Of a stretch of DNA of 64,000 nucleotides, positions 443-58,099 are shown piece by piece. The DNA is from Fimbriimonadales bacterium (lineage in GTDB: Bacteria > Armatimonadota > Fimbriimonadia > Fimbriimonadales > JABRVX01): the NCBI GenBank assembly GCA_045862955.1, contig BTVI01000009.1, forward strand, positions 1 to 64,000. Reading direction: 5' to 3'. The notes under the pieces are model-generated. The model saw nothing but the letters and a program-made list of their open reading frames with translations. It had not been told where the DNA came from and made no database searches. The position numbers and the translations under genes are program-made. How positions within the stretch are numbered: position 1 is the stretch's first letter; every line of letters starts with the position of its first letter.

Positions 443-448
443 AAATCC

Positions 449-10700: not shown

Positions 10701-10744
10701 TCGTGAGGGCTAGCAGTGGGTCTCGGGAAGTGGAGGACAGGCCA

Positions 10745-41484: not shown

Positions 41485-41937
41485 GCCCGCGAGTCGTGGG
41501 AGGTAGCGAGCGGCACCTCTGACCATCGCATTCGTGGAGCGATCCTGGGCCGCCAGTGCGTCACAAGGCTGCTGCGTTCCAAGAGAGAGTGCTTGTTGGG
41601 CGTCGAGCGCCGTCGGAGCTGGAACCGTCGTCTTGCCAGCCTTCCAAGTCCCCTCTGCCGACCGAGCAGTCGTTCCTGGAGCCGGGCCGTCGCTGCGCCT
41701 AAGAACACCGTCTTCGGGCGCCCTCCCGGGTGCCGGTGGAGGAAAGAACCAGAAAAGCACAAGTGGGTCGGTGCTGGCGTCTCCGTAGAGGGGGGCCGGT
41801 GGAGGAAAAAATCAGAAAACCGCAGGAGGGGACGAGAAGGAATCGGCGAGCGAACGTCGAAAGGTATCGCCATAGATGTATCGGTGTCCCGAGCATGGGC
41901 TAGGGTCACGCGATTTGCATTCGGAGGGAGTAGGCTA

Positions 41938-43257
41938 ATGCGAAGAGTAGCTTCCGCACCTAGCTTCAGTATCGTTCCGCCCGAACGAAAGGCAATCTGG
42001 GAGGGCGAGATCCACGTCGTCACGCCGATGTTCGGTGGGTCGGCGACGGCCGGCCAAGTGGACCCCGGGCGCCCCGTGAATGCGAAGATGGTTCGCGGCC
42101 ACCTGCGCTTCTGGTGGCGGGCCTGCCGGGCGGCTCAATTCGAGAGCGCGAAGGATCTGTTCGACGCCGAAGCCGCACTTTGGGGCTCGACGGAGACGCC
42201 GTCGGCCCTAGACCTGGTGCTCGAAGTGCGTTCCTCCGGCAACAGCCGAGCCTGTGCGCGTTACGAGAAGAGGCCCGATGGCACTTACAAATCGCTGCCT
42301 GCCTTCGCATCAGGCTATCCGCCGTACGCACTGTTCCCATTTCAAGGCAAGGCAGAAAGGACCACGATACAAATTCAGCCGGCTGAAGCACTCGAGGGTG
42401 TTCGATTTAGCCTCCGAATCCTTCCCTCGCAAAGCATCAGAAGTGACGCTCTCGACGGCGTTGCTGACGGGGTTCTAGCGGCGTTGTGGGCATGGCTGCT
42501 GTTCGGCGGCGTGGGTGCGAGGACCCGCCGGGGTTGTGGCAGCCTGTACACCAACGGCTGGCCCTTCGAAGGTCTGCAAGCCAATGCCCTCGAGGCGATC
42601 TCGAAGCTCAAGTCTGAGTTTCTCCATTCTGGAGCCCGCTCCCTGCCGATACCAGCGCTGTGTGGAGCAGGCTTGCTGGTCGGGACGCAACTGCAAGGCC
42701 ACCTCGACGCTTGGAGCGCTGCAGTGAACACGATGCGCGACTTTCGACAGTCCGTTGGCTTCGCGAGAAATCGTGGTCAGCAACACAATCGTCCTGGTCG
42801 CAGTCGCTGGCCAGAGGCGGATAGTATCCGCGAGTATGCTCATGTTGCAGCGCCCGGGCATCGTCCCAGTCATCCGGCACGTCCTTTCTTCCCGCGCGCG
42901 GATCTGGGCATGCCGATCGTGTTTCACTTCCAAAGCCGCGAAGACCCGTCGGACTACATCGTGGGGCCGAAGGAAGATGGCAAGCAGCGCATGGCCTCCC
43001 CTATCATCCTCAAACCGCTCGCAGTTTCCGTCAAAGCCGCCTACCCGATCGCGCTACTACTAAATGCCCCTCATGTTTGGGACCGAGAGGCCCCGAAGCC
43101 TTACGCGAACAACAAACCGCTGGGACATAGCGAGCTCGCGGATGGTAGCAAAGTCGCGAAGGTACCGCCTCTGACTGACATGGGTAACAAGAACGCCCGC
43201 GATGCGTTCATGGCCTTCTTCAAGCAAAAGACCAACGCAAAGGAGGTGAAGCTGTGA
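41938..43257 (+). CDS. cmr1: Type III-B RAMP protein Cmr1
   Basis: VVTPMFGG, VRGHLRFWWRA, LWGST, FGGVGARTRRGCGS, LGMPIVFH, RMASP; first gene of cmr run. Confidence 0.92.
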   Translation: MRRVASAPSFSIVPPERKAIWEGEIHVVTPMFGGSATAGQVDPGRPVNAKMVRGHLRFWWRACRAAQFESAKDLFDAEAALWGSTETPSALDLVLEVRSSGNSRACARYEKRPDGTYKSLPAFASGYPPYALFPFQGKAERTTIQIQPAEALEGVRFSLRILPSQSIRSDALDGVADGVLAALWAWLLFGGVGARTRRGCGSLYTNGWPFEGLQANALEAISKLKSEFLHSGARSLPIPALCGAGLLVGTQLQGHLDAWSAAVNTMRDFRQSVGFARNRGQQHNRPGRSRWPEADSIREYAHVAAPGHRPSHPARPFFPRADLGMPIVFHFQSREDPSDYIVGPKEDGKQRMASPIILKPLAVSVKAAYPIALLLNAPHVWDREAPKPYANNKPLGHSELADGSKVAKVPPLTDMGNKNARDAFMAFFKQKTNAKEVKL

Positions 43258-45044
43258 GCTACTTGTTCGCGGTATCGCTGGGTCCGGTACAGGGCTTCAT
43301 CCAAGCGGCTCGAAAGACGCGGGACCTTTGGTATGGCTCCGAGATGCTGAGCGAGATGTCACGCGAGGTGGCGAAGATGCTGCGTGACCGTGGCGCCGAG
43401 CTGATCTTCCCCTCGCCACAAGCGCTAGAGATGGACCACAGCGGTGCACAGCCAACGGGGAGTCGGCAGCCTGCAATCGCCAACAAGATACTGGTGGAGG
43501 TGAGCACGAACCCCCAGCCACTGGCAGAAGCCGTCGGGCAGGTGGTAAGCGAGTTCCTCGATAAGCAGCGGAATGCCGCAGTGGCGAAGGCGAAGGGTCA
43601 CCTCGAGGGCGTACTGAAAGAAGAGCCAATGGGCTCGCAGGTAGCTGCCTTCCCTGAGGTGTACTGCGCATGGTGGCCGATGAACGGAGACTACGAGTGC
43701 GCTCGCTTGGAGGTGGACCGGCTGCTAGCAGGGCGCAAAGCCCTTCGCGATTTCGCACCGAACAACGGCATCGCAGGTCGCCCTAAGTCTTCCCTAGATG
43801 GAGCCCTCGAGTCGGTCACGTACGATACGTCGAAGTTTGACCCTGTCAGGCTAAGGGCGATCGGCTTGAGGCCGGGCGAGGAGTTGGATGGCGTATCGCT
43901 GATCAAGCGTGTGAATGCAGGCGAACGCTTCGTGTCCGTGTCCAGAGTGGCTGTGGACCCGTTCGTGCGCCATCTGAAAGAGAACAAGCCTGACGTGCTC
44001 AACGCACTCTGCGACAGCGCGCAGACACTGACGGGTACCGACTGGGTGCAAAGATTCAAGGCGGAAGGACGGCTCAAACACTACGATGCCTTTCCATACG
44101 ACACCCAACTCTTCTACGGTCCGCCGACCAAACTGGAAGCGAGCGAGGCCCCGGAGCTTGCACCGCAAGCAGAGAACTTCTACAAGATTGCCTCCGGCGC
44201 CGGCTCGCCGCCCCTGTACTACGCGGTGCTGCAGGGTGACGGCGACCGAATGGGAAAGGTACTCGGAAGCCTCGGGGTCAAGGAGAAGCATCAGGAGTTC
44301 TCTTCCAAGCTTGTGGATTTCGCATCTGCGGCGGCCGACATCGTCGCGAATCACCACGGCGCACTGGTCTACAGCGGTGGCGATGACGTATTGGCCTTCT
44401 TGCCCCTCGACCAAGCGCTCGAGTGCGCGGATGAGCTTCAGAGAGAGTTTCGCCGCGTTCTGAGTGCATTCGAGGGTGCGACATTCACCTGCGGCATAGC
44501 AATCTGCCACTACTCCGAACACCTACAGAACGCGCTGCGCTGGGCGAGAGATGCCGAAAGAGCCGGCAAGAAAGTTCGTAACGCCATCGGCATCCACCTT
44601 CATACACGTACCGCTGGCGAGGAGAAGGTGGAAGTAGTGGACGAGTGGGGAGAGGACCCGGCAGTCCAGAATGCCGAAGGCGCGAGAAAGCATGGTGCCA
44701 CCGTCAGCCGTCTGCTGGAGTGGGTGAACCTCTTGCGCGAAGACCGCATCCCGGACGGTGCCATCTTTCAGTTACGGGCTCTACATCGTGAGTTTCGTGA
44801 TAGCGGAGTAACCGAAGTGGAAGTTCTTCAGAAGGAGGCGATGCGCATCATCGGGAGAAAGCGCGCCGAGAAGGGCACTAAGCCGCTAGACGAAGAAGAC
44901 AAGAAGCGGATCGAGAACAGTATGTTCTCCCAGCCAATCGGCGATTTGAACGCAGCTCTCGATAGCGTCGACCGCTTCGTCAACGAGATGATCATCGCCC
45001 GCCATATCGCAAGAGCGAAAGACGTGGTGGAGAAAGGAGCGTAG
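43254..45044 (+). CDS. cmr2: Type III-B Cas10/Cmr2, no HD domain
   Basis: Begins directly with LGPVQGFIQAARKTRDLWYGS; YYAVLQGDGDRMGK; LVYSGGDDVLA. Confidence 0.95.
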   Translation: MSYLFAVSLGPVQGFIQAARKTRDLWYGSEMLSEMSREVAKMLRDRGAELIFPSPQALEMDHSGAQPTGSRQPAIANKILVEVSTNPQPLAEAVGQVVSEFLDKQRNAAVAKAKGHLEGVLKEEPMGSQVAAFPEVYCAWWPMNGDYECARLEVDRLLAGRKALRDFAPNNGIAGRPKSSLDGALESVTYDTSKFDPVRLRAIGLRPGEELDGVSLIKRVNAGERFVSVSRVAVDPFVRHLKENKPDVLNALCDSAQTLTGTDWVQRFKAEGRLKHYDAFPYDTQLFYGPPTKLEASEAPELAPQAENFYKIASGAGSPPLYYAVLQGDGDRMGKVLGSLGVKEKHQEFSSKLVDFASAAADIVANHHGALVYSGGDDVLAFLPLDQALECADELQREFRRVLSAFEGATFTCGIAICHYSEHLQNALRWARDAERAGKKVRNAIGIHLHTRTAGEEKVEVVDEWGEDPAVQNAEGARKHGATVSRLLEWVNLLREDRIPDGAIFQLRALHREFRDSGVTEVEVLQKEAMRIIGRKRAEKGTKPLDEEDKKRIENSMFSQPIGDLNAALDSVDRFVNEMIIARHIARAKDVVEKGA

Positions 45045-45046
45045 CC

Positions 45047-46249
45047 ATGGATACTACCTATCTCATCGAACCGAGAGATCCGATCCTCGCGCGGGATGCC
45101 AGGCCGTTCTCGGCCCAGCCAGGTGCGTTCGCACAGAGCCTGCCTTGGCCGCTACCTTCCACTACCACGGGTGCCATCCGCACCTATCTTGGCGGAGACT
45201 GGAGTCAGAACCCCGCAGAGAAGGCGGCCCAGATGCTACACGTATCCGTCCACGGCCCGCTATTGGTTGCTAAGAGGGAGGGCGGACAGTGGCAGGTGTA
45301 TTATCCAGCTCCGGCAGACGCTGTTATCTATGATACGCAGGCAGAGGGCGCTGTGGGTGATCCTAATAGGAAGCCGAAGAAGGTGATGAACCTTCTCCCC
45401 CTTCCGCGGCTGCCGGAGGGTGCGGGCTGCAATCTGCCGGATGGACTACTACCAGTTTGTGTTACCGAAGACGTCAAGCCATCGCCGGAGTTCGCTTTCT
45501 GGTCGCACGAGTACACCACGGCCCAATTAGCTAGCTCAACTCCCGGAGAGGATCCGCCTACCGAGGGCATCAAGGACTTGCCCAAGGACTCCCGAGTGCA
45601 CGTGAGCATAAACCCGGAAACGAAGACGGGTGTCGAAGGACGCCTCTTCGCTACGACCTCGCTAGTCTTCCCTGACGGACCCCTTGTCGACAGAGGCACC
45701 AAGGTCGGCTGGCAAGAGATCGGTATGATATGCAAGGTTGTAGGAGCTCCCAACGGCATCGCTCGCCGATTGCAGCCTCTCGCCGGCGAAAAGCGCCTCG
45801 CCTACATCACTCCTGGAGACGGACTCTGGCCCACGATCCCAAAGGAGCTCGTCGAGGCCTGTTCTAGCAGCACGAAGTTGAAGCTCCAGTTGGTTACCCC
45901 TGCCATCTTCGAGCATGGATGGAAGCCAGGATGGTTGAAAGATGGCTTGTTAGGCACGCCGCCTGGGCTGGACGGAATTAGCCTAAAGTTGGTATCGGCT
46001 GCGGTACCCCGACGCGGCGCAGTGAGCGGGTGGGATTACAAGGCGAAGGGCCCGAAGCCCTCGCGATTCCTCGCTCCCGCCGGCAGCGTCTACTTCTTCG
46101 AAGTCGCGAGTGGAAGCCTAACAGAACAGGTAGTTCGTTCTCTTTGGCTTTCCTCGGTTTCTGATAGCGAGCAAGACCGCCGCGACGGTTTCGGCCTCGC
46201 GATACCTGGAATATGGGATTACTATAAGGAGGATACGAGTGGACAGTAG
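45047..46249 (+). CDS. cmr3: Type III-B Cmr3 (Cas5 group)
   Basis: IEPRDP..ARDARPF, P.PST..GAIRT, LAGEKR, LVTPAIF..GW.P, PAGSVYFF, DGFG. Confidence 0.93.
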   Translation: MDTTYLIEPRDPILARDARPFSAQPGAFAQSLPWPLPSTTTGAIRTYLGGDWSQNPAEKAAQMLHVSVHGPLLVAKREGGQWQVYYPAPADAVIYDTQAEGAVGDPNRKPKKVMNLLPLPRLPEGAGCNLPDGLLPVCVTEDVKPSPEFAFWSHEYTTAQLASSTPGEDPPTEGIKDLPKDSRVHVSINPETKTGVEGRLFATTSLVFPDGPLVDRGTKVGWQEIGMICKVVGAPNGIARRLQPLAGEKRLAYITPGDGLWPTIPKELVEACSSSTKLKLQLVTPAIFEHGWKPGWLKDGLLGTPPGLDGISLKLVSAAVPRRGAVSGWDYKAKGPKPSRFLAPAGSVYFFEVASGSLTEQVVRSLWLSSVSDSEQDRRDGFGLAIPGIWDYYKEDTSGQ

Positions 46250-47204
46250 AATACTCTTCATCCACGGCCTGAGCCCCATTCATTCGGGGACCGGTCAGGC
46301 CGTCGACGTGATTGACCTGCCGATCGCACGCGAGAGGACCACCGGCTGGCCCTACCTCCCCGGCTCGAGCATCAAAGGCGTCCTCCGCGATGCATGCAGA
46401 CTAGCTATGTTAGAGGACCTCAAAGGGACGGACGGACAAGTCCAGCACTCGGACGAACAATCCGCCGAGGGGGTAGCCAAGAGCTCCGAGGAAAAGCTCC
46501 AACTGCATGGAGACTACCGCCTCTACAAAGAAGCCTTCGGCCCTGAGGACAAGCCGGAGGAGCATGCAGGAGCACTCGCCTTCGGTGATGCGCGCATCCT
46601 CTGCATGCCCGTGCGCTCCTTCGCTGGCACCTTCGCCTGGACCACCTGCCCAATGGTGCTAAAGAGGGTCCAGCGCGACGACATGAATGCGGGTCTCGGG
46701 GAGATGCCGGAGCTTACTGAGACGCTAAGCTACGAGGAGGGGGCGGTCGCTCGAGACTCGGTTGTGGTCCATCGAGGCAAGGTATACCTGGAAGATCTCG
46801 ACGTGTCAATCAAGACAGGTGCGGACGCAGCAGACCTAGCAGACATGCTGAGTGCCGAGCTGTTCGGCGAGTCGGACTGGCAGCAGGCCTTCCGCGAGCG
46901 ATTCGTAGTGGTCTCCGACGACCTGTTCAGCTACCTCTGTGAGACGACTACGGAGATTACGGCTAGGGTCAGGTTGCGGCGAGATACTAAGACCGTAGCT
47001 ACGGGTGCGTTGTGGTACGAGGAGGCGCTACCCACTGAGTCGATACTGTATTCTCCTCTCATCGCCAACCCCAGGCCTCCCGTAACCCCCGTGGAGCTGT
47101 TCAACTTCATCTCTCCCAAGTTGGATCGGCCGGTGCAGATAGGCGGTAATGCCAGCGTCGGCCGCGGGCTGGCCACATTCAGGCTTCGAGGTGAGCGGTC
47201 ATGA
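46239..47204 (+). CDS. cmr4: Type III-B Cmr4 (Cas7 group RNase)
   Basis: HSGTG...VIDLPIARE (catalytic-position Asp), PGSSIKGVLR, GALWYEE.LP, QIGGNASVGRG. Confidence 0.95.
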   Translation: MDSRILFIHGLSPIHSGTGQAVDVIDLPIARERTTGWPYLPGSSIKGVLRDACRLAMLEDLKGTDGQVQHSDEQSAEGVAKSSEEKLQLHGDYRLYKEAFGPEDKPEEHAGALAFGDARILCMPVRSFAGTFAWTTCPMVLKRVQRDDMNAGLGEMPELTETLSYEEGAVARDSVVVHRGKVYLEDLDVSIKTGADAADLADMLSAELFGESDWQQAFRERFVVVSDDLFSYLCETTTEITARVRLRRDTKTVATGALWYEEALPTESILYSPLIANPRPPVTPVELFNFISPKLDRPVQIGGNASVGRGLATFRLRGERS

Positions 47205-47626
47205 CGAGGCGGCAAGAATACATGGCGCAAGCGCTAAGAAATGTTCGGGAGGTGGAAAAGCTTTCTGAAAAGCTTTCTGGCCGGATACCCAAGATTTACG
47301 GGGGTCTTTGCCATAAGCTCCCTGTTCTCGTCAGAGCGTGCGGTCTATGCCAGACTGTAGCTTTCCTGGAGGCAAAGTCCGAGTCGAAAGACAGAGAGCG
47401 CGCGGAGGCCTATCTGAGGATGTGCGGCCACGTGAAGGAGATGCTCGAGAAGCATGGTGGTGTCAAGGTCGCTGCTCAGACTCTCTCCGAGGCTGTTGCC
47501 GGGCTTGAGATCAGAGAGTACTCATTTGCTACGCGTTGCATCCTACAGGCATGGGTTTTCTACAAGAGATTTGCAGAGTCGATCCTCAAGGTTGCTAACG
47601 CCCAGGAGGACGAGCATGGCAGCTAG
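47201..47626 (+). CDS. cmr5: Type III-B small subunit Cmr5 (Cas11)
   Basis: Y......LP.LV...GL.QTVAF, Y..AT......W...KRFAES; between cmr4 and cmr6. Confidence 0.9.
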   Translation: MTRRQEYMAQALRNVREVEKLSEKLSGRIPKIYGGLCHKLPVLVRACGLCQTVAFLEAKSESKDRERAEAYLRMCGHVKEMLEKHGGVKVAAQTLSEAVAGLEIREYSFATRCILQAWVFYKRFAESILKVANAQEDEHGS

Positions 47627-48737
47627 CTTCGTGGCGTCTCGCCGAGGTCTTGCAGCCGTGCAAGATGGTGCTGTCAGAGACAACCCAGGCCTGGCACTCG
47701 AGAGATCACTCTCGTTGCTCGGTGACGACATGGCGGCCCGCGAAAGCGAGCAACGCTTACGGGACAAAATAACAGAACCGATGCCGGCGGAGCTTGCCCT
47801 CTTGTACCTCAAGGCCTATAAGCGCTGGCGGAGCTGCCTAAACTCCTTGCCAGGGCCTGTTCTCACGCGAGAGGTGCGCACCCTGGACCGTGTCATCGTC
47901 GGACTCGGCAGTGAGAGCGTGTTGGAGACCTCCATCACCCTCAACCGTATCTATGGCGTGCCCATCCTCCCCGGCTCAGCACTGAAAGGTGTCGCTAGGT
48001 CCTATTATGAGAACGAGCTCAGACCTGCCGACCCCGAAGAACGCAAAAAGCACCGGGAGACGGGTGACGACCTCTTCGGCTGGGAGGCCAAGGAGGGTGA
48101 GCAGGGCAAAGAAAAGGAAGAAGCCAAGTCCGGCTGCGTCACCTTCTTCGATGCATGGTACATACCAGGCTCCACCAAAGACGACAAGCCCCTACGACCA
48201 GACGTCATCACCGTGCACCACCCGGCATACTACCAGAACTCCGGACAAGAGCCCCCTACGGACTTCGACGATCCGACTCCCGTCGGCTTCATCAGCGCTC
48301 GTGGCTCGTTCCTTCTCGCAGTGCAGGGCCCGGACGAGCAGTGGACGAACCTCGCCATGGAGGTCCTCACCCGAGCACTCGCGCACTACGGAGTCGGCGG
48401 AAAGACCTCCAGCGGATACGGTCGTCTCGTCCCCAGCACTACCGCGCAGGGTCCAAGCAGCCAGAGCACTACCGACCGTCCCCAGCCAGCACCGGACCCG
48501 CTTTCTGACCCGGAGGTGGAGCAGGTGAAGACCACCCCGCCCAACCAAGTCAGGAGCCGCATCGCTAACTGGCTCCAGAAGTTCAACCAACGTTGCAAAA
48601 CCGACGTCGGCAAGGCTCGGGCACTGGCGGAGGCCATAAGAGAGAGAGTGGAGGCGAGTGGCATAGCGGATCAGCTCGGCATGGACCAACGCAACTATCG
48701 CATGATGATCGAGTGGTTGGAGGCTCAGGGGAAGTAA
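47616..48737 (+). CDS. cmr6: Type III-B Cmr6 with C-terminal extension
   Basis: AGGAGG RBS; IVGLG..SVLETSITL...YGVP.LPGSALKG, DVITVHH..YY, D..DP.PV.F, GVGGKTSSGYG. Confidence 0.93.
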   Translation: MAASFVASRRGLAAVQDGAVRDNPGLALERSLSLLGDDMAARESEQRLRDKITEPMPAELALLYLKAYKRWRSCLNSLPGPVLTREVRTLDRVIVGLGSESVLETSITLNRIYGVPILPGSALKGVARSYYENELRPADPEERKKHRETGDDLFGWEAKEGEQGKEKEEAKSGCVTFFDAWYIPGSTKDDKPLRPDVITVHHPAYYQNSGQEPPTDFDDPTPVGFISARGSFLLAVQGPDEQWTNLAMEVLTRALAHYGVGGKTSSGYGRLVPSTTAQGPSSQSTTDRPQPAPDPLSDPEVEQVKTTPPNQVRSRIANWLQKFNQRCKTDVGKARALAEAIRERVEASGIADQLGMDQRNYRMMIEWLEAQGK

Positions 48738-48747
48738 GTGAACGGCC

Positions 48748-49671
48748 ATGATGTATCCTACTCCCGTAGGCTGTCTGAATCTAGACATACCGGTGCCTGA
48801 TCCCGCCGACGCACTAGATCTCACCACTCTGGATGTTATCATGCAGGTGGGCGAGAAGCCACTGCGTTTCGTCAACTTCCCAGGCCTTGCGTGGCGATCC
48901 GTCTTCGGCTATGCGCTGAGAACGCTTACGTGCTTATCCGCAAACGACTCTGCTTGTGAGCAAGCCTGCGCCCACCCAAAGCTCTGTCTCTACGGTCGCA
49001 TCTTCAGCCCACCTCGTATCGAAGAACCGGCTCGAGGATTCCAGGACCCTCCTCGCCCGTACGTGGTGCAGCTTCCCAAGCCAAAGCATGGAATGGGGCA
49101 ACCTTTCACGCGGTACGACCTGCGTATCAACCTGATCGGTCCCGCAACGCATGCTGTTGAGGCTGTCGTTGCCGCACTCCGCCTAGCGTGCGAAAGGGGC
49201 ATCGGGCCGGACCGAGCTAGGCTAAGCGTAATCCAAGATGTTCGAACGAGCTGGAGCCGGCCGGAATGCGACCTCGATACCGAAAGCATCACCCTAGAGT
49301 TCGTGACACCTACACAACTCCGCGTGGGTGGTAGCCTCGTTACTTCGCCAGAGTTCTCCTACATCGTCCGGGGAATCCTTCGAAGGGTTATCCCACTGTC
49401 TGAGCTGTACGGCACACCGCTGGAAGTCTCGGCCGACCGACTGATCGCGGCTGCTCACGACGTGAAAATCGATCGCGCGAATATCGCTTGGTACGACATC
49501 GAGAGAAAGACCCGAAGGCCAGACAAGAAAATGGTACTAGACGGCTTCGCTGGCACCGTCCGCTACGTCGGCGATATCGGACAATTCCTGCCGTGGTTGT
49601 ACCTGGGCTCGGCTCTCAACGTCGGAAAGCATGCTACCTTCGGCATGGGACACTTCGAGGTGCACCCGTGA
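48748..49671 (+). CDS. cas6: crRNA-processing endoribonuclease Cas6
   Basis: G..WRS.FG.AL, C.Y..IF, PRPYV, LEFVTP, C-terminal glycine loop VGKHATFGMG. Confidence 0.9.
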   Translation: MMYPTPVGCLNLDIPVPDPADALDLTTLDVIMQVGEKPLRFVNFPGLAWRSVFGYALRTLTCLSANDSACEQACAHPKLCLYGRIFSPPRIEEPARGFQDPPRPYVVQLPKPKHGMGQPFTRYDLRINLIGPATHAVEAVVAALRLACERGIGPDRARLSVIQDVRTSWSRPECDLDTESITLEFVTPTQLRVGGSLVTSPEFSYIVRGILRRVIPLSELYGTPLEVSADRLIAAAHDVKIDRANIAWYDIERKTRRPDKKMVLDGFAGTVRYVGDIGQFLPWLYLGSALNVGKHATFGMGHFEVHP

Positions 49672-51122
49672 GCGACACGGTATTCGCACTCGGTCTCTCT
49701 GGATTGCAGGACTTCGTGTATGACGTAGAAGCGGAGGATGCAGCGCGCAGACTGCGCATACGCTCAGCCATACTAACGCTCGCGCCAGCTCTCGTCGCAT
49801 CTCGGTTGCGGCAGCTGACACAGCCAGGACTCGAACCCTACTACCTGGGTGGAGGCCAGTTACTGACGTCATGCTCATCCCAGGCTCTATCCCAGATCGA
49901 ACCGGAGTTGCGCAGTCTCCAAGAGTGGCTACTCGTGCATTCCGCTGGGCGCATCCTACTGTACTGGACATCAGTACCTCGCTCGGACGATGTCAAAAAT
50001 GATCTGCAAGAAATCATCCGCGCAGTCCTCCGAGCAAAATGGCAAAGTGGTAGGCATCAATCCGAGTGGTTGGCTCACGCTTCACGGTTGGACCCACTCG
50101 ACCCGAAGCGAGGAGCGCTGGGAGATCCGCAGTGGGAAGCAGACATCGGTAGGGAACTAGTGCGGGCCGGCGGCTTCACTGGCTTCCGGCTGGTCAATGG
50201 CGGTGACGGGTGGCCCGTGGGCCCATGGATGGTCCAGCCGGTGTCCGATGGCGAGTCTGACATTCGTATCCAGCAAGGTGCAGACGACCTCGGCATCGTC
50301 ATCGGCCTCCCGACACATGTTCCCACCTACCAGACCGGAGATATCATTCCCTTCGACCAGATGGCAGCCCAGGGAACCGGTGCGAGCTACCTCGCAGCGC
50401 TCAAGTTGGACGGTGACCACATGGGCAAGAGCATGGCAGCAGCTCTGGCCCAAAGCGCCGATGAGTATCTGAGTCGTAGCCGAGCCGTGCGTGCGTTTTT
50501 CGCCGTCACGGTGCCCAGGCTCTTTCGCGACGAGTTTCCCAACGTGTATCTCATCTACTCCGGCGGAGACGACCTAGCAGCCGTCGGCCACTTCCACGAT
50601 CTGCTCAGAGCCGCATACCGAATAAACCAAGAGTACTCCCAGCAAGGGCTAGGCACTCTATCGGCCGGGATCACAGCGTTTCACCGTAAGTCTCCAGTAC
50701 GCTTGGCCATGGACGTCGCGAACAATCTGCTCGAAGGGCACGCCAAGAAAGACAGAAATCGAGTGTGCGTCTTCGGCGAGACACTCACCTGGGACCAACT
50801 CGATGTTGTCATACGAGAGGCAGAGGTGTTGGCCCAGTCCGTCGAGCAGGAACCGGACGGCCTGCCGCGAGGCATGCTACAGCTACTTATGCAGCTAGAC
50901 TCGCTTTACACGTCGCAGATTGACTGGCTGAAGAAAGTTCGCTTTCGTGCATTTCCACTGATCCAGTACTTCCGAGCACGCCGCCTAAAAGCAGAGGGAC
51001 TCTCTACGGAAGCCGCTACGATATTCTACAACCTGGAGGGTGGACACGACCCCACTTGGAATCGTATCGGACTGGTGGCTCTGCTCGCAGCATGGCTAAC
51101 TAAGCCACAGGAGAACGAATAA
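49668..51122 (+). CDS. cas10: Short Csm1-type Cas10 (about 484 aa), no HD domain
   Basis: GTG overlapping cas6 stop; LSGLQDFVY....AARRLRIRS, YYLGGG, LKLDGDHMG, YLIYSGGDDL, TLSAGI, AK..RNRVCVFG..LTW. Confidence 0.85.
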   Translation: MSDTVFALGLSGLQDFVYDVEAEDAARRLRIRSAILTLAPALVASRLRQLTQPGLEPYYLGGGQLLTSCSSQALSQIEPELRSLQEWLLVHSAGRILLYWTSVPRSDDVKNDLQEIIRAVLRAKWQSGRHQSEWLAHASRLDPLDPKRGALGDPQWEADIGRELVRAGGFTGFRLVNGGDGWPVGPWMVQPVSDGESDIRIQQGADDLGIVIGLPTHVPTYQTGDIIPFDQMAAQGTGASYLAALKLDGDHMGKSMAAALAQSADEYLSRSRAVRAFFAVTVPRLFRDEFPNVYLIYSGGDDLAAVGHFHDLLRAAYRINQEYSQQGLGTLSAGITAFHRKSPVRLAMDVANNLLEGHAKKDRNRVCVFGETLTWDQLDVVIREAEVLAQSVEQEPDGLPRGMLQLLMQLDSLYTSQIDWLKKVRFRAFPLIQYFRARRLKAEGLSTEAATIFYNLEGGHDPTWNRIGLVALLAAWLTKPQENE

Positions 51123-51574
51123 TGAACTCGATGAGGAAAGCCTTCCAACAAGCCGGGGTCGGCGGAGGTGGTCCCCAAGGGGAAAGGCCTCGCTTAGACC
51201 ATCAAAAGATGACGGAGTACTACGATCAAGACGGCTGCATCCGCAGAGAGGTATACGTAGACTGGCCGAAGGAGATAGTAAGGGCTTTGTCCGAAGCCAG
51301 AGTCACGCGTAGTCGGCTGCGAAAGCTCTATGAACAAGTACTGGCGACCAAGGCGCGCCTAAGACTGGGTCACGAGAGTGACACCCAAGTTCTCCGATCT
51401 GGACTACTGCAGCTGCGCCGCGCCGCCGAACATCTCGGTGCCAGACAACCACCTCTACCACGTGTCGCAGTGGACTTCGTCGTCATTCATACGGATCGTG
51501 TTCGTGAAGACCCGAAGCTCTTCATCGGCTTCTTCGAGCTATTCCAAAGTGTCTACGCGTACATGCCGCGATAG
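51122..51574 (+). CDS. csm2: Type III-A small subunit Csm2 (Cas11)
   Basis: VTRSRLRKLY, F..FFE....VYAY; lies between cas10 and csm3. Confidence 0.8.
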   Translation: MNSMRKAFQQAGVGGGGPQGERPRLDHQKMTEYYDQDGCIRREVYVDWPKEIVRALSEARVTRSRLRKLYEQVLATKARLRLGHESDTQVLRSGLLQLRRAAEHLGARQPPLPRVAVDFVVIHTDRVREDPKLFIGFFELFQSVYAYMPR

Positions 51575-51586
51575 GAGGTAAGTAGA

Positions 51587-52318
51587 ATGCCATCTCATCT
51601 CAGCCACTACGTCGCCCTCAACGCGCGAATGAAAGTTCTCAACGGCCTCAGAGTTGGATCCGGAGCCGAGACCATGGAGATCGGTGCCCTAGACAATCCT
51701 ATCATCCGACACCCGTTCTCCAGGCAACCGTATATCCCTGGTTCGTCGCTAAAGGGCAAACTGCGCTCCCTCTTGGAGATCAAAGGCATCACGACTACCA
51801 ATCACCCGGCCAAGCCGCAACGCAGACAAGGCCCTTGCGGATGCGGGAAGTGCGTTGTATGCTGGTTGTTCGGCTCCGGCGACGTGCGCAACACCGCTGA
51901 GCCCACACGTCTGATCTTCCGAGATGCCTTCCTAACTGCCCAGCATCGTGATAAGCTGAGCAGCCTGCTGGAGCAAGGCGTCCTTTATAGCGAAACCAAG
52001 TCCGAAGTCGTCATGGACCGCGTCACCGGCAAGGTTGCCAGTGTGGGCCCGCGCACCATGGATCGCATCATGGCAGGCACCGAGCTCGACTTGTGCATCT
52101 CGATCCGCGTCTTCGAGGGTGATGATGTCGAAGAAATCAAAGAAGTCCTCATCGCCGCTCTCAAGATGCTGCATCGAGACACCCTAGGCGGCTCTGGCAC
52201 CCGAGGCTACGGATGGGTGGGCTTCCCGAAGGTAGTGTTCGGAAGCGAAGACATCACTTCCGAGATTCACACCCCCGAAGAGCTCGAGAGAATGAGCCAA
52301 ATTAGTCTCGATAAGTGA
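51587..52318 (+). CDS. csm3: Type III-A Csm3 (Cas7 group)
   Basis: GLRVG....EIGALDNPIIR (catalytic-position Asp), PYIPGSSLKGKLRSLLE, ETKSE...DR, LGGSGTRGYG; AGGAGG RBS. Confidence 0.93.
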   Translation: MPSHLSHYVALNARMKVLNGLRVGSGAETMEIGALDNPIIRHPFSRQPYIPGSSLKGKLRSLLEIKGITTTNHPAKPQRRQGPCGCGKCVVCWLFGSGDVRNTAEPTRLIFRDAFLTAQHRDKLSSLLEQGVLYSETKSEVVMDRVTGKVASVGPRTMDRIMAGTELDLCISIRVFEGDDVEEIKEVLIAALKMLHRDTLGGSGTRGYGWVGFPKVVFGSEDITSEIHTPEELERMSQISLDK

Positions 52319-53190
52319 TGAACTGGTACGAAGTCCAAATCACGCCGCTCGCGCCATTCCGCACCCCGTGGCGTAACGATACCATCTGGGGACGCCTCAC
52401 ATGGGCCGTCGCCCAAGAGGCTATCGCCTCCTGGAATATCCATCGCTGGCTCCAGGCCTACCGCGACGGAAACCCTCCGCTGGTGGTTGCCGACGGATTT
52501 CCTAGGACCGGCTTTCCCCTGCCCGCAGCATGGCACACCCTACCAACGAAGGACGATCACAAACCACCCGAGGTCATAACTTTCGAGGAGCTAACACGCC
52601 TCTCCAAAGGCAACGGCCACCCCATCGAGAGCGGGCAGCCCCTAAGACCTTCTTCGCGACTACATGTCTCTCTCTCCCGAAGCACCGGCTGCGCAGTAGA
52701 CGGAAGTCTCTACGTGGCAGATGCATACCTGCCTCCAGAAGACGTGCCCATCAGCGTCGTCACGCTGCTAGATCACGGCCTGACTCCTAGAGACCTCGAG
52801 GCCCTGTGGCAGCATGTGGCCAGCGAAGGCTGGGGCAAAGGGCGCTCGACTGGCTATGGTGCATTTCGGTTAGACGGCGTGACACCTCTCGAGCCGCCGG
52901 CGCAAGACGCAAACGGCTTCGTCACACTGGGACACATCATACCAAACGATGACCTACCACTCGATGGTCTGTGGCGATGGAGCGGCATCAAGACGGTCCC
53001 ACACGATCCCGATACCGGTCTCACGATGTTCCCTCCGCTGTTTTCTGTCGCACTCAGACCAGGAGCTTGTTTTCGAGAAAAACCCCCACGCCAGTGGACC
53101 GGACGAATGCTCCTTCACCCACTAGAGGGACATCCCAACTACACACGATATGGACTCGCCCCAGCGTGGCCTATCACCTGGCCGGACTAG
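52315..53190 (+). CDS. csm4: Type III-A Csm4 (Cas5 group)
   Basis: TP...DTIWG.L.WA, PLVVADGFP, GWGKGRSTGYG.F, PGACF, G.ML. Confidence 0.82.
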   Translation: MMNWYEVQITPLAPFRTPWRNDTIWGRLTWAVAQEAIASWNIHRWLQAYRDGNPPLVVADGFPRTGFPLPAAWHTLPTKDDHKPPEVITFEELTRLSKGNGHPIESGQPLRPSSRLHVSLSRSTGCAVDGSLYVADAYLPPEDVPISVVTLLDHGLTPRDLEALWQHVASEGWGKGRSTGYGAFRLDGVTPLEPPAQDANGFVTLGHIIPNDDLPLDGLWRWSGIKTVPHDPDTGLTMFPPLFSVALRPGACFREKPPRQWTGRMLLHPLEGHPNYTRYGLAPAWPITWPD

Positions 53191-53256
53191 CTCCACCACA
53201 TCGCGCACATTGACAAGCACATAACGATCTCGCCAGAGGCCAATTCCTAGCAATCG

Positions 53257-53282
53257 GGGGTCGGGCGGCCCCGCCCGACCCC
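53257..53282. promoter_or_regulatory. Perfect GC-rich hairpin between csm4 and cas1
   Basis: ggggtcgggcgg-cc-ccgcccgacccc; no U-tract. Confidence 0.45.
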
Positions 53283-53305
53283 ACCTTAGCCAGATCGGTT
53301 CCAAG

Positions 53306-54295
53306 ATGATTCTCATAGCAGACGAACTAGGAGCACGAATCAAATACGCTCAAGGCCAACTCCTCATCCATGATAAAGATGACAACGTCCTAACTAAAGC
53401 CGAGCTCATCCACGTCGAAGAGGTCGTCCTCGTCGGCGCAGTGGGTATCTCCGGACCAGCCATCGAAGCTATCGTCGCTAACGGAATAGACCTCTATTAC
53501 ATCGCATACGACGGCGAGCCCGCAGCACGACTCGTCCCCGATGGTTCTACCTATGCCGAGCTCAGACTCGCACAGTACAGAGCCACGAACGATGACAAGC
53601 AGAAGCTCTACTACGCCAAGGCATTCGTGGGAGCAAAACTCGCCAATCAGAAGATACTGCTCCAACGCGCCTTTCGTACCTGGCACCAAGAGCACAGCCT
53701 CGAACCACTCGATCGCGCAATCCAACAGATAGATGGCGCGCCAGACATCGCAACCCTTATGGGTATCGAGGGCGCAGCTGCACAAGCCTACTTCACCCTC
53801 ATCGGACACATCATCCCGCCCGAATGGGGCTTCCGAGGCCGAAAGCGACGCCCGCCACCGGACCCCGTCAACGCAATGCTCTCCTTCGGATATACTTACG
53901 TGGGTAACCTCGTCACGAGAGCCGCTCGAGCCGCACGACTCGATATATACCTTGGCCTGCTCCACGCAGAAAGAGAAGGCAGACCGTCCCTCCCCCTCGA
54001 CCTGCTCGAGGAGTTTCGACCATTTACGGCAGACGCAACCATGCTCCGCATCGTACGGCAGAAAATGCTGAAGCCTACCGACTTCGAAACCACGCCAGAT
54101 GGCGGATGCCGAATGTCAGAACCCGCGCGAGCCGAGTTCATCCAGACACTCGAAAACCGCCTCGCCGACGAGTTCACTCACCCTACCAAAAGGCAGCGTT
54201 GCAACTTTCGACAAGCCATGCTGATACAAGCAAGAGAACTCGCACATTCGCTGCTCGCCGATAAGCCCACCTACCAAGCACTGGTGCTACGATGA
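53306..54295 (+). CDS. cas1: CRISPR integrase Cas1 (unfused)
   Basis: MGIEG.AA..YF, RRPPPDPVNAMLSFGY, GLLH, L.LDLLEEFRP..AD. Confidence 0.96.
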   Translation: MILIADELGARIKYAQGQLLIHDKDDNVLTKAELIHVEEVVLVGAVGISGPAIEAIVANGIDLYYIAYDGEPAARLVPDGSTYAELRLAQYRATNDDKQKLYYAKAFVGAKLANQKILLQRAFRTWHQEHSLEPLDRAIQQIDGAPDIATLMGIEGAAAQAYFTLIGHIIPPEWGFRGRKRRPPPDPVNAMLSFGYTYVGNLVTRAARAARLDIYLGLLHAEREGRPSLPLDLLEEFRPFTADATMLRIVRQKMLKPTDFETTPDGGCRMSEPARAEFIQTLENRLADEFTHPTKRQRCNFRQAMLIQARELAHSLLADKPTYQALVLR

Positions 54296-54582
54296 AACCA
54301 GGAACGCAGTTCGTGCTACTCTGCTACGACATCGTAGACAATAAACGCCGAGCCAAACTCCAAAAGGTAGCAGACGCTTTCGGCGAACGCGTCAACGACT
54401 CGGTATACGAGTGCTGGCTGAACCCTACCCAAGAGGCCTCGCTCGTCAAGAAAGTCAAACGATTAGTGAACGAGCGCGAAGATGCGGTCTACTTCTACCG
54501 CCTCTGCGCCGCATGCCTCCAAAGAAAGTCCTCTATCGGACTTCACGTTGAAACGCAACCCGAAAGGGTCCGAATCGTGTAA
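54292..54582 (+). CDS. cas2: Cas2
   Basis: LLCYDIVDNKRR, FGERVNDSVYEC, D.V.FY.LC..C. Confidence 0.95.
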   Translation: MKPGTQFVLLCYDIVDNKRRAKLQKVADAFGERVNDSVYECWLNPTQEASLVKKVKRLVNEREDAVYFYRLCAACLQRKSSIGLHVETQPERVRIV

Positions 54583-54962
54583 CAATAGGGGGAGTCTAGG
54601 CCGTGCGCCGAAACCCCTCATTGCGGTCTGCGGGACTCTTCGGCCCCTGCCTAGTTGAACCTGGCTTGCCGAAGAGTCCCGCAGAATCGACCACTTTTGA
54701 GAGTCTTTTTATGTACGGATTGCAACGAAAAGGACCTGGTATAGGTCTTCGACCTCTCGGACCGGGACTCGACTGGGCCAAAATCTGGCTTCGAATCGGC
54801 GCGAATCCCCTAGTCCTCTTGGTAAGCTCTACTTCCTTTTGGCCCGATTTGCGGGACTCTCCCCCCTTTTCGAGCTGTTTTGAGAGTCCCGCACCGGTTC
54901 AAAGGTTGACTTCTCACCACTTTTTGGGGAAGAATCGAACCTGGATGGGGCAAAGAGATGCG
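54583..54962 (+). promoter_or_regulatory. CRISPR leader
   Basis: 380 bp between cas2 and first repeat, T-tracts, two related inverted repeats; the degenerate repeat is at the far end of the array. Confidence 0.75.
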
Positions 54963-57900
54963 GTCGCAGCAACCTCCCCGCTAACAAGGGGACTGAAACG
55001 TTAATAGTACAACCCCATAACTCTAAGGCTTTCTAATTATAACGTCGCAGCAACCTCCCCGCTAACAAGGGGACTGAAACGTCCGATTCGAAGCCATCGG
55101 ACTGCGCAATCGAGAGTACGTCGTCGCAGCAACCTCCCCGCTAACAAGGGGACTGAAACAGGCTCGACGGGGAACTTGTCGTCTTGCCAGATGTACGTCG
55201 CAGCAACCTCCCCGCTAACAAGGGGACTGAAACTCCAAACACGACATAGGTCAGACTGATTCCTACCGAATTGATGAAGTCGCAGCAACCTCCCCGCTAA
55301 CAAGGGGACTGAAACGCACCTGACGGTGGGCGGTTACGGCCGATCGCCAGTCCGAGTCGCAGCAACCTCCCCGCTAACAAGGGGACTGAAACGCCAGCAG
55401 CTCGGCCCGGAGCTTCTCTAACATGTGTCTTCTGTCGCAGCAACCTCCCCGCTAACAAGGGGACTGAAACTTCTGATTCTCCTTCAGGATTGTCGTGATG
55501 ACGTTGTCAAGGGTTGCGTCGCAGCAACCTCCCCGCTAACAAGGGGACTGAAACGCGGTGTTACAGGAGGACTGGGACGGCCAGGAGTTTTTGGAGTCGC
55601 AGCAACCTCCCCGCTAACAAGGGGACTGAAACGCACACCGCGTCTCCGCCAAAGCCGTGTCCCATGTTGGTTACGTCGCAGCAACCTCCCCGCTAACAAG
55701 GGGACTGAAACCGCGATAATCCTGCAAACCACTTGCAGAACCGATTCGCCAACGTCGCAGCAACCTCCCCGCTAACAAGGGGACTGAAACGAGGGGTGGT
55801 TCTTCAAGTCACGTGACGAGTGGGCTGAAGAGACCGGTATGAGTCGCAGCAACCTCCCCGCTAACAAGGGGACTGAAACAGGGACCGTGCCATCCGTGGT
55901 TGCGTACACGGTTGCGTGTCGCAGCAACCTCCCCGCTAACAAGGGGACTGAAACTTCTGGCGGTCAATCCCGGAAAGGCGGCTAAGGTCAGGGTCGCAGC
56001 AACCTCCCCGCTAACAAGGGGACTGAAACCGACTGCACGCTGCCGTGGTTCAGGATCCCCAGCAGGTTGGGCGCGGGTCGCAGCAACCTCCCCGCTAACA
56101 AGGGGACTGAAACCAAGAAGGGGCACGCGCGAGGCTGCGCAAGCTTGGCGTGCTGGTCGCAGCAACCTCCCCGCTAACAAGGGGACTGAAACGCGTGCTA
56201 CCCAGTAGGACCTATCAGCGAGCGGGCCGTTAGGTATCGGGTCGCAGCAACCTCCCCGCTAACAAGGGGACTGAAACAACAACGTTGGAACTGGCTTAGG
56301 ACGTTGACGTCCTAGACTTGTCGCAGCAACCTCCCCGCTAACAAGGGGACTGAAACGGCGAAGTAGGCCTCGAAGTAGTGGAGGCATGCCTCCGGGTCGC
56401 AGCAACCTCCCCGCTAACAAGGGGACTGAAACAAAACTTGGAGACGGTATGTTTAGTATCCTAATCAATTCGTCGCAGCAACCTCCCCGCTAACAAGGGG
56501 ACTGAAACATAAAGTGTCCGAGTTCCTCCAAAACAGCTAGCGCGGCCTCCTCGTCGCAGCAACCTCCCCGCTAACAAGGGGACTGAAACAACGCATCGTG
56601 GATTTTCTTGACAACAACCGCAGGCAGAAAGTCGCAGCAACCTCCCCGCTAACAAGGGGACTGAAACTGGAGGAGCTAGGGCGACTTTGGACGGCCCCGC
56701 TGGATCGTCGCAGCAACCTCCCCGCTAACAAGGGGACTGAAACGGGAGCTCGAGGGAGCTCGCGCGGGAGCTCGCGCGGGGGGAGCGTCGCAGCAACCTC
56801 CCCGCTAACAAGGGGACTGAAACGTAGCACGTACCGTCTACGACCTTGCGGCCGCAGCCGGGTCGCAGCAACCTCCCCGCTAACAAGGGGACTGAAACCT
56901 CGTTCGCCTTGGCGAGGGCGCTGTCGGCCTGAGCCTTAAGGGTCGCAGCAACCTCCCCGCTAACAAGGGGACTGAAACAACCTAGCTACTAGCCGCTCGA
57001 AGTCGTGGCCCTTGCGCCTATTGGGTCGCAGCAACCTCCCCGCTAACAAGGGGACTGAAACTCACGGACGCCCCACCTTCCTGCCCCCGGCGGGCCCACC
57101 GTCGCAGCAACCTCCCCGCTAACAAGGGGACTGAAACGTAGCGCGGTCCCACCACAGGGAGTGGGCGAGCCGTCCAACGGTGTCGCAGCAACCTCCCCGC
57201 TAACAAGGGGACTGAAACTATCCGTATGTGATCACGGCGTGCCCGGATGGAGAGGGGTCATGTCGCAGCAACCTCCCCGCTAACAAGGGGACTGAAACGG
57301 CTGCTTGAGCTTAAGCTCAAGCTAGCCGCCCTAGGCGTGAACCCGGGTCGCAGCAACCTCCCCGCTAACAAGGGGACTGAAACGTTCCACAGGTGCTTTG
57401 TGACGATTACTGGCTCAGTTACAGCTGTCGCAGCAACCTCCCCGCTAACAAGGGGACTGAAACCCATCCTTTTGGTGTGCCGCCTCGCCCCCGGCGCAGG
57501 CGATGGGGGTCGCAGCAACCTCCCCGCTAACAAGGGGACTGAAACCTCTTGCTAGGTATGCCATGCCAAACAGTATCGCCGCAGGTCGCAGCAACCTCCC
57601 CGCTAACAAGGGGACTGAAACTTAGGCCGTTCCGCCAGCGGCGGTAGAGGACCTCCTCGTACATAAAGTGGTCGCAGCAACCTCCCCGCTAACAAGGGGA
57701 CTGAAACCAACTCCCGTAGTTCTGCCGGCGCTAATCCCTTCACACTGTCCGTCGCAGCAACCTCCCCGCTAACAAGGGGACTGAAACGGGGCGGCGTGGA
57801 GTACCACTCCGCGTGGAGACTGGTGGACGTGTCGCAGCAACCTCCCCGCTAACAAGGGGACTGAAACGCATGCGCGCGCGATGACACAAGGACGCACGAG

Positions 57901-58099
57901 AATGCGTCGCAGCAACCTCCCCGCTAACAAGGGGACTGAAACAAATCTGCCGAAACCTCTTCTATCGGCGGATATTATGATCTTGGTCGCAGCAACCTCC
58001 CCGCTAACAAGGGGACTGAAACATTGACCGAACGCCTGCCAACACGGCCTATTGTTTGGACCGTCGCAGCAACCTCCCCGCTAACAAGGGGACTAGAAC
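54963..58099 (+). CRISPR. CRISPR array, 40 repeats / 39 spacers; repeat GTCGCAGCAACCTCCCCGCTAACAAGGGGACTGAAAC (37 bp)
   Basis: Manual count; spacers about 37-52 nt; TCCCC/GGGGA stem; 3' GAAAC; last repeat degenerate (...GGGGACTAGAAC). Confidence 0.98.

Follow-up and report, generated by a model that had tools for sequence, protein, structure and literature searches.

A conserved type III-A CRISPR module with a short Cas10, a single Cas7 and no Csm5

Results

A compact type III-A variant

The cas10–csm2–csm3–csm4 module described here lies in a 64,000-nucleotide stretch of a Fimbriimonadales genome (hereafter, the window) and is best explained as a type III-A variant that is conserved, has one Cas7 subunit and lacks both Csm5 and the HD domain. 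Judged from sequence, the encoded complex would bind guide RNA, cut target RNA through Csm3 and produce cA4 that switches on CARF nucleases, a reading to which we assign a probability of about 0.6. The locus is organized as follows.

41935..48737, forward strand: neighbouring complete type III-B module, cmr1–cmr6 (cmr1 start approximate; Cmr2 also lacks HD)
48748..49671, forward strand: cas6 (PF10040, E 4e-16; PADLOC Cas6, 215 bits), type III-like family, not Cas6e
49668..51122, forward strand: short cas10/csm1, 484 aa (TIGR02578, 179.9 bits against a cut-off of 170; matches to Csm1 structures in the PDB)
51122..51574, forward strand: csm2 (Cas11), 150 aa (PF03750, E 0.004, under the cut-off)
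51587..52318, forward strand: csm3, the module's only Cas7 (TIGR02582, 189 bits against a cut-off of 90)
52315..53190, forward strand: csm4 (Cas5), divergent, 291 aa (PADLOC Csm4, 130 bits; TIGR01903, 27 bits, under the cut-off)
53191..53305, forward strand: 115-bp gap at the usual place of csm5, with an 11-bp perfect hairpin at about 53255–53280
53306..54295, forward strand: cas1 (TIGR00287, 261 bits)
54292..54582, forward strand: cas2 (TIGR01573, 58 bits)
54963..58099, forward strand: CRISPR array, 40 hairpin-forming repeats of 37 nt, spacers of 37–52 nt
62340..63641, forward strand: CARF-HEPN RNase of the Csx1/CARF1 type (TIGR02710)

The cas6 stop codon overlaps the cas10 start (GTGA), and this sole cas6 of the locus is likely common to the Cmr and Csm modules. 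The csm2, csm3 and csm4 frames are open and abut or overlap, with gaps of at most 12 bp, which agrees with an earlier note on this DNA that had described them as intact, tightly coupled and separated from cas1 by 115 bp without a csm5. The hairpin in that gap has a z-score of −2.7, and equal stability was reached in 1 of 200 shuffles. The CARF-HEPN RNase is likely the reader of the module's signal; a CARF-RelE gene follows it just outside the window.

A strain from a separate study carries positions 43204–54700 on a single contig, with 140 substitutions and only two gaps, both in cmr2, and the layout is therefore not an assembly artefact. GC content shows no step at the module, promoter and terminator counts are at chance level, and the array spacers have no match in the rest of the genome (G000). 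One RNA library yielded a few 150–180-nt contigs over cas6 and cas10 at a depth of 2–3, although such contigs cannot show transcription.

Among the backbone subunits, Csm3, which was aligned to solved Csm3, retains the catalytic aspartate of its IGALDNP motif (D35, invariant in 39 relatives) and also bears a CxCxxCxxC motif. Csm2, which has a Q/G/R-rich N-terminal tail, is identified by a weak profile match but an expected gene position; its ortholog in one relative (L001) matches TIGR01870 with an E value of 2.5e-6. The divergent Csm4 groups with the Csm4 of sisters that pass TIGR01903.

The short Cas10 lacks the HD domain, the zinc finger and the Palm1 aspartate

The cas10 gene begins with GTG, and its product starts at Palm1. 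The best sequence and fold matches of the protein are Csm1, and its structure model is only of moderate quality (pLDDT 65). An extension of the frame upstream to 544 aa was rejected for its overlap with cas6. In the region upstream of Palm1 (48900–49670), a search for an HD domain found a sole HD dipeptide, which belongs to the reading frame of cas6; the two remaining frames are interrupted by 10 and 5 stops. Full-length relatives of the short Cas10 measure 474–513 aa (n = 12). None of six short Cas10s contains a CxxC, whereas two such motifs occur in all 12 longer Cas10s compared alongside; in the profile alignment to a full-length sister, the first CxxC loop is deleted and the second has become GDPQWE (a GDxxWE segment). 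Checks of the open reading frame, the alternative frames and the alignment thus bore out the earlier description of a 484-aa Cas10 without an HD domain or zinc finger.

Equally borne out were the altered Palm1 and the intact Palm2 motifs. Palm1 reads LGLSGLQ, with its aspartate replaced by Gly9; this position is A, G or S in 12/12 Cas10s of the clade, and the aspartate is kept in 111 of 116 non-clade rows. The Palm2 DGD and GGDD motifs (D248, D250, D301 and D302; GGDD at 299–302) are invariant in 13/13, and the window protein also has a helical D4. Csm1 proteins without an HD domain are common: 25 non-clade proteins start at Palm1 (125 scored of 155), 9 of which also lack CxxC, and HD loss alone is reported in 35% of III-A systems, with HD present in 65% (PMC11229360). 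The clade-specific trait is the replacement of the Palm1 aspartate by A, G or S, not the loss of HD.

Residues S277, Y304, D520, S546, Y572 and D577 of Lactococcus lactis Csm1 correspond to kept residues, and T542, the cA6-specific threonine, corresponds to Y or F in the short Cas10s (both mappings were counted by hand). Both adenine-reading Tyr/Ser pairs are retained. The lost Palm1 aspartate is equivalent to L. lactis D253, which binds Mg for the acceptor ATP; with the zinc finger gone as well, cyclase activity could be low or absent, and the CARF genes of the window could be fed by Cmr2 alone.

The earlier note had proposed a different signal from the altered Palm1, and a remodelled site might indeed yield another messenger (SAM-AMP, or a linear or short product), or none, leaving a complex that only knocks down RNA. 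The clade-wide loss of the acceptor-site aspartate and zinc finger and the long Cas10 branch would fit such a change. We nonetheless regard it as improbable, given that Palm2 and the Tyr/Ser pairs are retained, that Cmr2 proteins likewise lack this Palm1 aspartate, and that ordinary CARF effectors of the CARF1 and CARF-RelE types lie within the relatives' operons; CARF1 binds cA4 (PMC12669027 supplement). SAM-AMP synthases require two acidic residues, D70 and E151 (PMC10600005), whose equivalents in the short Cas10s, in an inferred mapping, would be K/Q/R64 and K124/R129. No corA was seen among annotated neighbours.

Absence of csm5 is a property of the lineage

In the prevailing view of III-A complexes, Csm5 is an invariant subunit, and it recruits guide-trimming host nucleases (PMC9762709, PMC5389561). 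In eight genomes searched, one of them a complete chromosome, no csm5 model scored over its cut-off, including in the window's locus and genome (the positive control gave a signal in 4/14). Our own 17-sequence csm5 profile, run against the window's genome, found only cmr4 and csm3. The genome-wide search for which the earlier note had called therefore yielded no csm5.

Among 74 informative III-A loci, csm5 is present in 59 and absent in 15, and 13 of these 15 form one side of a branch in the Csm3 tree, HD-bearing sisters included (support 98/99, or 100/100 without long rows; 92 in the Csm4 tree). Isolated losses also occur inside csm5-positive clades (L007 and L084). The Cas10 tree proposed in the earlier note was less decisive: the join of the short and HD-bearing clades is poorly supported and carries a long-branch warning, the short clade sitting on a long branch, and it is the Csm3 tree that groups the 13 loci.

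The missing csm5, HD domain and zinc finger, together with the two single losses elsewhere, might suggest a decaying III-A remnant retained beside a working III-B system. To this we give almost no credence. The module genes have dN/dS values of 0.05–0.27 (against L072; csm2, 0.05), far below 1, and contain no indel in the independent strain. About 50 Csm3 sequences of the clade were found, with stand-alone loci whose arrays reach 74 repeats. The absence of csm5 is not local decay, because selection is purifying and the four-gene block is common to five relatives. The earlier proposal of a streamlined effector gains support from the same conserved block and selection, and from the lack of csm5 in 8/8 genomes.

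Relatives carry a dedicated Cas6e

All five relatives with full context (L001, L002, L070, L073 and L164; L002 lies in Fontivita pretiosa, which is in culture and whose genome is complete) share the cas10–csm2–csm3–csm4 block without csm5, and none has cmr genes beside it; of the layout that the earlier note suggested looking for in relatives, the four genes held and the adjacency did not. Each of the five has a CARF effector inside the operon (CARF-HEPN of the CARF1 type, or CARF-RelE), together with a Cas6e and a type I-E array (29-nt repeats, 32-nt spacers), neither of which occurs in the window's own locus. The relatives' Cas6e proteins form a dedicated clade, with 49–55% identity within it and 31–39% to the Cas6e of Cascade, and their Tyr and His match Thermus thermophilus Cse3 in 39 and 40 of 41. 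L002 and L073 keep a second cas6e alongside Cascade; no Cas7e was found in the genomes of three relatives (G049, G1002 and G401).

Dedicated-clade Cas6e occurs on contigs equal in size to those of clade Csm3 in 19/25 cases, compared with 1/49 for ordinary Cas6e, and a search of 228 genomes with Cas6e as the sole query found one genome, which carries the whole module. Two weaker Cas6e matches were also seen (G090 and G225). A Cas6e cap cannot be universal, because no dedicated Cas6e was found in the window's genome and 14 of 33 clade Csm3 genes on contigs of at least 5 kb have no Cas6e match.

Could Cas6 be a stable cap throughout the lineage, with the window's type III-like Cas6 remaining on the repeat hairpin in place of Csm5? 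The overlap of cas6 with cas10, the hairpin-forming repeat, the position of cas6 directly 5' of cas10 in the HD-bearing sisters L004, L082 and L092, and the dedicated Cas6e of the relatives are compatible with such a cap. We consider it unlikely, however: this Cas6 family and arrangement of genes are also seen in csm5-positive loci, the window's Cas6 is not tied to the sisters' Cas6 in the tree and groups apart from it, the window's spacers vary from 37 to 52 nt, and Cas6 is missing from the IV-C complex, and from most type III complexes, after purification (PMC13676074).

The earlier note had raised the possibility of a cap borrowed from Cmr1 and/or Cmr6, in cis in the window and, by extension, in trans elsewhere. 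A full, co-oriented cmr set adjoins the module, and a cmr set with cmr1/cmr6 occurs in 4/5 short-Cas10 genomes, with G049, G402 and G1002 holding sets elsewhere. At best this lends weak support to what we judge a poor prospect, as the relatives have a dedicated Cas6e instead of adjoining cmr genes, and the loss of Csm5 reaches the HD-bearing sisters, one of them in a genome whose only RAMP match is csm3. Among genomes for which completeness is not given, the other RAMP locus of G401 has no Cmr1/Cmr6 match, and RAMP matches are csm3 only in G1013 and csm3 plus a fragment in G1012. Finally, in one strain most of cmr1 is replaced, whereas the Csm genes are about 99% identical.

Antisense spacer bias was absent from all eight arrays (46/94 in module-only arrays, 19/39 in the window), a strand test that says little because the method is correct for only 76–79% of host gene fragments. 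No relative was found in viral contigs scanned with Cas10 and Cas6e alignments, no further short Cas10 in 301 genomes of the class of L002, and no Cas10 match in G1008 and G1009, genomes from the same genus and the same family. Among 135 genomes of the phylum of L001, one weaker 513-aa match with a canonical Palm1 lies on a 2-kb contig.

Discussion

Based on these data, Cas6 would cut the array, Csm4 would grip the 8-nt tag, and Csm3 and Csm2 would polymerize over the spacer, without Csm5 giving a Csm3 filament that has no Cas7-type cap. In the window, this filament would most likely stay open at its end, with the guide determining how long it grows. Single-Cas7 type IV-C provides a precedent for such an uncapped complex and assembles without Cas6 on a 6-nt guide ladder (PMC13676074). 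In the five relatives, I-E guides would have a constant length of 61 nt, and the dedicated Cas6e would likely remain bound to their 3' hairpin, closing the filament. Cas6e caps Cascade on such a 3' hairpin. It is important to note that a dedicated Cas6 is no proof of a subunit role, because the III-B/I-F hybrid, marked by its own Cas6f clade, keeps three Cas7 genes (PMC6360697). Target binding would turn on Palm2, with cA4 the likely product because the cA6-specific threonine is absent; no DNA would be cut, and defence would consist of RNA cleavage together with CARF-HEPN and CARF-RelE activity.

Compared with type III-A Csm complexes (Staphylococcus epidermidis, Streptococcus thermophilus, L. 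lactis and Thermococcus onnurineus; PDB 7uzw, 6ifn, 9ash and 6muu), the module shares a Csm1-type Cas10, Csm2, Csm3 with its catalytic aspartate, Csm4, the GGDD cyclase motif and CARF effectors, but its Cas10 has 484 rather than about 750–820 residues, and Csm5, the zinc finger and the Palm1 aspartate are missing. One Cas7, one Cas5 and a Cas10-like subunit are also found in the single-Cas7 class 1 systems III-H, III-F and IV-C. Those have HD and a dead cyclase; the present module is their mirror image in keeping the cyclase motifs and losing HD, and it comes with adaptation genes, an array and CARF effectors. The relatives resemble type I-E Cascade in Cas6e, repeat and spacer length, whereas backbone and large subunit are Csm and the window's module has no Cas6e. 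They likewise resemble the Vibrio III-B/I-F hybrid in combining a type III effector with its own type I Cas6 clade and a type I array, yet that system is III-B with three Cas7 and Cas6f (PMC6360697), in contrast to a III-A-derived effector with one Cas7 and Cas6e, Cas1e and I-E arrays. III-A2, for which cOA synthesis is predicted, is likewise a clade of reduced III-A systems, but it lacks Cas11, whereas the window keeps Csm2 and lacks Csm5 (PMC12669027).

A literature search found no description of a Csm5-less four-gene III-A variant. We tentatively suggest, at somewhat less than even odds, that the module represents an undescribed subtype and, with its four proteins and about 1,170 residues of distinct sequence, the smallest type III effector of several subunits that is competent to signal. 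Csm5 would have been lost a single time and, in most members, replaced by a dedicated Cas6e that caps the guide hairpin in the manner of Cascade. If true, this would be a genuine type III/type I-E chimera whose guides are of fixed length, whose spacers are acquired by the I-E route and whose activation switch does without zinc.

More generally, the Csm5-less module recurs in distantly related bacteria and likely serves phage defence through the cutting of phage RNA and a chemical alarm; for most close relatives, the predicted cap is Cas6e, an enzyme of RNA processing that would have been borrowed. A natural III-A lineage without Csm5 makes testable the purpose of the cap, the capping of a type III backbone by a type I Cas6, and Cas10 switching without the zinc finger. 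As the mirror image of HD-only, single-Cas7 subtypes, it therefore bears on the shrinkage of class 1 effectors and the swapping of modules among them. A compact, DNase-free RNA sensor that works without host trimming would suit tools for RNA detection and knockdown.

Conservation of a Csm5-Less Module

The locus in the window comprises the following features.

Gene order: cmr1–cmr6, cas6, cas10, csm2, csm3, csm4, cas1, cas2, CRISPR array
49668–51122: second Cas10, 484 aa, beginning at Palm1, its start overlapping the cas6 stop
53190: end of csm4
53306: start of cas1
CRISPR array: 40 repeats of 37 nt each, spacers of 37–52 nt
4 kb beyond the array: CARF-HEPN gene

The features that an earlier note had read from the window were all borne out: the second Cas10 lacks an HD domain and CxxC, carries LGLSGLQ as its Palm1 motif and retains intact DGD and GGDD motifs, and csm4 and cas1 are spaced as described. 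A single contig from a separate study covers 43204–54700; it differs by 140 substitutions and by two gaps, which both fall in cmr2. In sequencing run X6, cmr1 is largely swapped for about 1,050 other bases (42123–43204) and the remainder of the locus keeps about 99% identity; in run X13 there are loose ends at those two positions.

Several neighboring elements were also observed. A further, small array, with 4 repeats akin to those of the window's array, lies on the opposite strand of the same contig (C9, 97980–98250). Just past the window (C9, 63740–67543), a CARF-RelE-type gene follows the CARF-HEPN gene; two genes face it, one for a CARF protein of 278 aa, the other helicase-like, 635 aa long and with weak matches to defence families. 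A dispersed, abundant REP-like short inverted-repeat element occurs at window positions 1–10700 and 61644 and on many contigs of the genome, with tandem units of 290–370 bp in its region at 9066–10713.

Searches with the short Cas10 returned six proteins above 270 bits (474–513 aa) and, among 1.84 billion representatives, six relatives with E below 1e-30, the longest at most 508 aa. For five relatives the full context is available.

L001: Hydrogenedentota
L002: Fontivita pretiosa
L070: in genome G049
L073: metagenome
L164: in genome G1002

In all five, cas10–csm2–csm3–csm4 is followed by one CARF gene or two, then by cas6e and a type I-E array, with cas1e between these last two in four; none has csm5 or an adjoining cmr set. 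Of a four-gene layout next to cmr, as raised in the earlier note, the layout is thus shared but the cmr adjacency is not. Relative to the short contig L072, dN/dS is 0.17 for cas10 (202 codons), 0.05 for csm2, 0.14 for csm3 and 0.27 for csm4 (97 codons). The Csm5-less four-gene module is real, conserved and unusual.

The absence of csm5 extends from the locus to the genome of the window (97.6% complete), where the Csm5 model stayed below cut-off everywhere, a profile built from 17 Csm5 sequences of the fetched loci matched cmr4 and csm3 only, and the RAMP matches above cut-off were four (cmr1, cmr4, cmr6 and csm3). The model, which passed its cut-off in 4 of 14 controls, did so in none of eight genomes (G000, that of the window; G049; G401; G402, a complete chromosome; G1002; G1011; G1012; G1013).

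Age of the csm5 Loss

Among 89 loci holding csm3 and csm4, scripted calls gave 58 csm5-positive, 15 negative and 16 uninformative loci. Two were changed by hand: L004, where cas1 abuts csm4, became negative, and L038, with a weak csm5 ahead of csm4, became positive. The resulting counts of 59, 15 and 15 are not frequencies, since near-copies make up many of the rows and every locus was fetched with clade-derived patterns. A 54-row Csm3 tree places 13 csm5-negative loci together with L072 on one side of a branch (98/99), with support of 100/100 after three long rows and half of the csm5-positive rows were dropped; the Csm4 tree supports the Csm5-less branch at 92. Seven of the 13 loci are sisters that have a canonical Palm1 and, where visible, two CxxC motifs; HD is present in the five with the Cas10 N-terminus on the contig. 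The Cas10 tree, a placement the earlier note had proposed, leaves the joining of the short and HD-bearing clades open, with a long-branch warning. Because the trees are midpoint-rooted and this join is open, we can only infer that the loss of csm5 came before the shortening of Cas10, the HD domain and zinc finger disappearing afterwards.

Separate losses occur within a csm5-positive clade in L007 (13614–15240) and L084; in L007 a 493-aa Csm6-like gene directly follows csm4. The sisters carry extra N-terminal parts on Csm2 (L004:10997–11653, L076:1724–2236, L010:3238–3750, L008:10797–11870): a cold-shock domain in L004, with similar starts in L075 and L092, and Cys-rich ribbons in L076, L010 and L008, the last of which also has its Csm2 doubled. 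These parts might help open structured target RNA, replacing Csm5.

Cas10 Active Site and Predicted Signal

Residues were counted along an alignment to L. lactis Csm1, with roles taken from PMC11417356. S277, Y304, D520, S546, Y572 and D577 correspond to S33, Y59, D248, S271, Y297 and D302 of the window protein, kept in 11–13 of 13 short Cas10 rows, and the cA6-specific T542 is replaced by Tyr or Phe. D253, the Mg ligand for the acceptor ATP (PMC11417356), is G9 in the window and Ala, Gly or Ser in 12 of 12 short Cas10; the equivalent Asp is also missing from Cmr2 proteins, including the window's. An invariant GxxxWE occupies the zinc finger position. In the predicted structure (pLDDT 65), Palm1 and Palm2 are present along with a C-terminus made of helices, and the model resembles known structures of Csm1. 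The two acidic residues required by SAM-AMP enzymes (PMC10600005) would be basic or Gln here.

In the relatives, the operons encode effectors of two kinds, CARF1-type HEPN and CARF-RelE proteins. CARF-RelE (Cami1) has cA4 as its ligand. CARF1 binds cA4 (PMC12669027). Given the retained active-site residues, the loss of T542 and these effectors, cA4 is the likely product of the short Cas10.

A Dedicated Cas6e and the Proposed Capping of the Filament

The module-linked Cas6e proteins of the relatives are 49–55% identical among themselves across phyla, versus 31–39% to Cascade Cas6e, same-locus ones included; L002 and L073 retain two cas6e genes. Their profile matched 41 proteins with scores of at least 208 bits, four of them the sequences that built it, the next match scoring 189; the Tyr and His equivalent to those of T. 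thermophilus Cse3 are present in 39 and 40 of the 41. No Cas7e match was found in G049 (99%), G1002 (100%) or G401, and therefore the type I-E array there has no Cascade to serve. Spacers are 32 nt in module-only arrays (69/73, 11/12 and 7/9), and a Cas6e-only search of 228 genomes gave one match, in a genome with the whole module. By indirect pairing of contigs of at least 5 kb through identical size, clade Csm3 accompanies 19 of 25 dedicated versus 1 of 49 ordinary Cas6e; 14 of 33 clade Csm3 have no Cas6e partner by identical-size pairing, which counts against generality. The dedicated Cas6e is absent from the window's genome, which likewise counts against generality. A quick tree of Csm3 shows no Cas6e match for the subclade of four rows that includes the window or for another of five rows, whereas the early branches have one, a pattern that would fit gain as well as loss.

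A separate type I-E locus of the window's genome (C72:1–7645 and C51) has ordinary cas6e, cas1e and I-E arrays; its Cas5 bears a tail resembling HNH, and cas3 is missing from that contig. In principle, the Csm5-less module could load guides from this locus. In L002 (4136–10001), Cascade genes include a Cas5-HNH fusion and a 592-aa Cas7e carrying a large insertion, and the Csm5-less block sits between Cascade's cas6e and cas1e.

How would a Csm3 filament end without Csm5? Cmr1/Cmr6 may, with lower probability, be borrowed as a cap: cmr sets are present in G000, G049, G402 and G1002; against this, the other RAMP locus of G401 has no Cmr1/Cmr6 match and csm3 is the sole RAMP match in G1013 (completeness unstated for both). 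A lone cmr6 was seen in Fontivita (L152:9059–11229), with a short CARF gene on one side and a transposase-like ORF on the other. In S. epidermidis, csm5 deletion abolishes guide trimming while the rest of the complex still forms, and untrimmed guides are protective under some conditions (PMC9762709, PMC5389561); type IV-C, with a single Cas7, assembles on a 6-nt ladder without Cas6 (PMC13676074). On these grounds, the Csm3 filament would be open-ended in the window and capped by Cas6e in the relatives. A type III/I-E chimera capped by Cas6e is put forward tentatively, at a probability of about 0.4.

Relation to Known Type III Systems

The portions available of the 2025 classification (PMC12669027: section 8, supplement and other passages) never mention csm5 or cas6e and list III-A2, which lacks Cas11, and the HD-only III-G and III-H. 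In contrast, the window module lacks Csm5 with csm2 present, and has lost HD with DGD and GGDD intact. HD occurs in 65% of III-A in PMC11229360, which left out hybrids carrying two cas10 genes, the kind of locus seen here. A single-Cas7 type III system with a dead polymerase (PMC10910872) and a III-B/I-F hybrid having its own Cas6f clade (PMC6360697) have been described. Neither a natural Csm5-less, cyclase-intact III-A lineage nor a Csm/Cas6e system appeared in the literature searched (titles and abstract openings, subscription papers being mostly uncovered). Because Csm5, the HD domain and the zinc finger, tested as marks of III-A membership, all failed in the window module, it is, as judged from sequence, a variant that would work like III-A rather than a canonical member.
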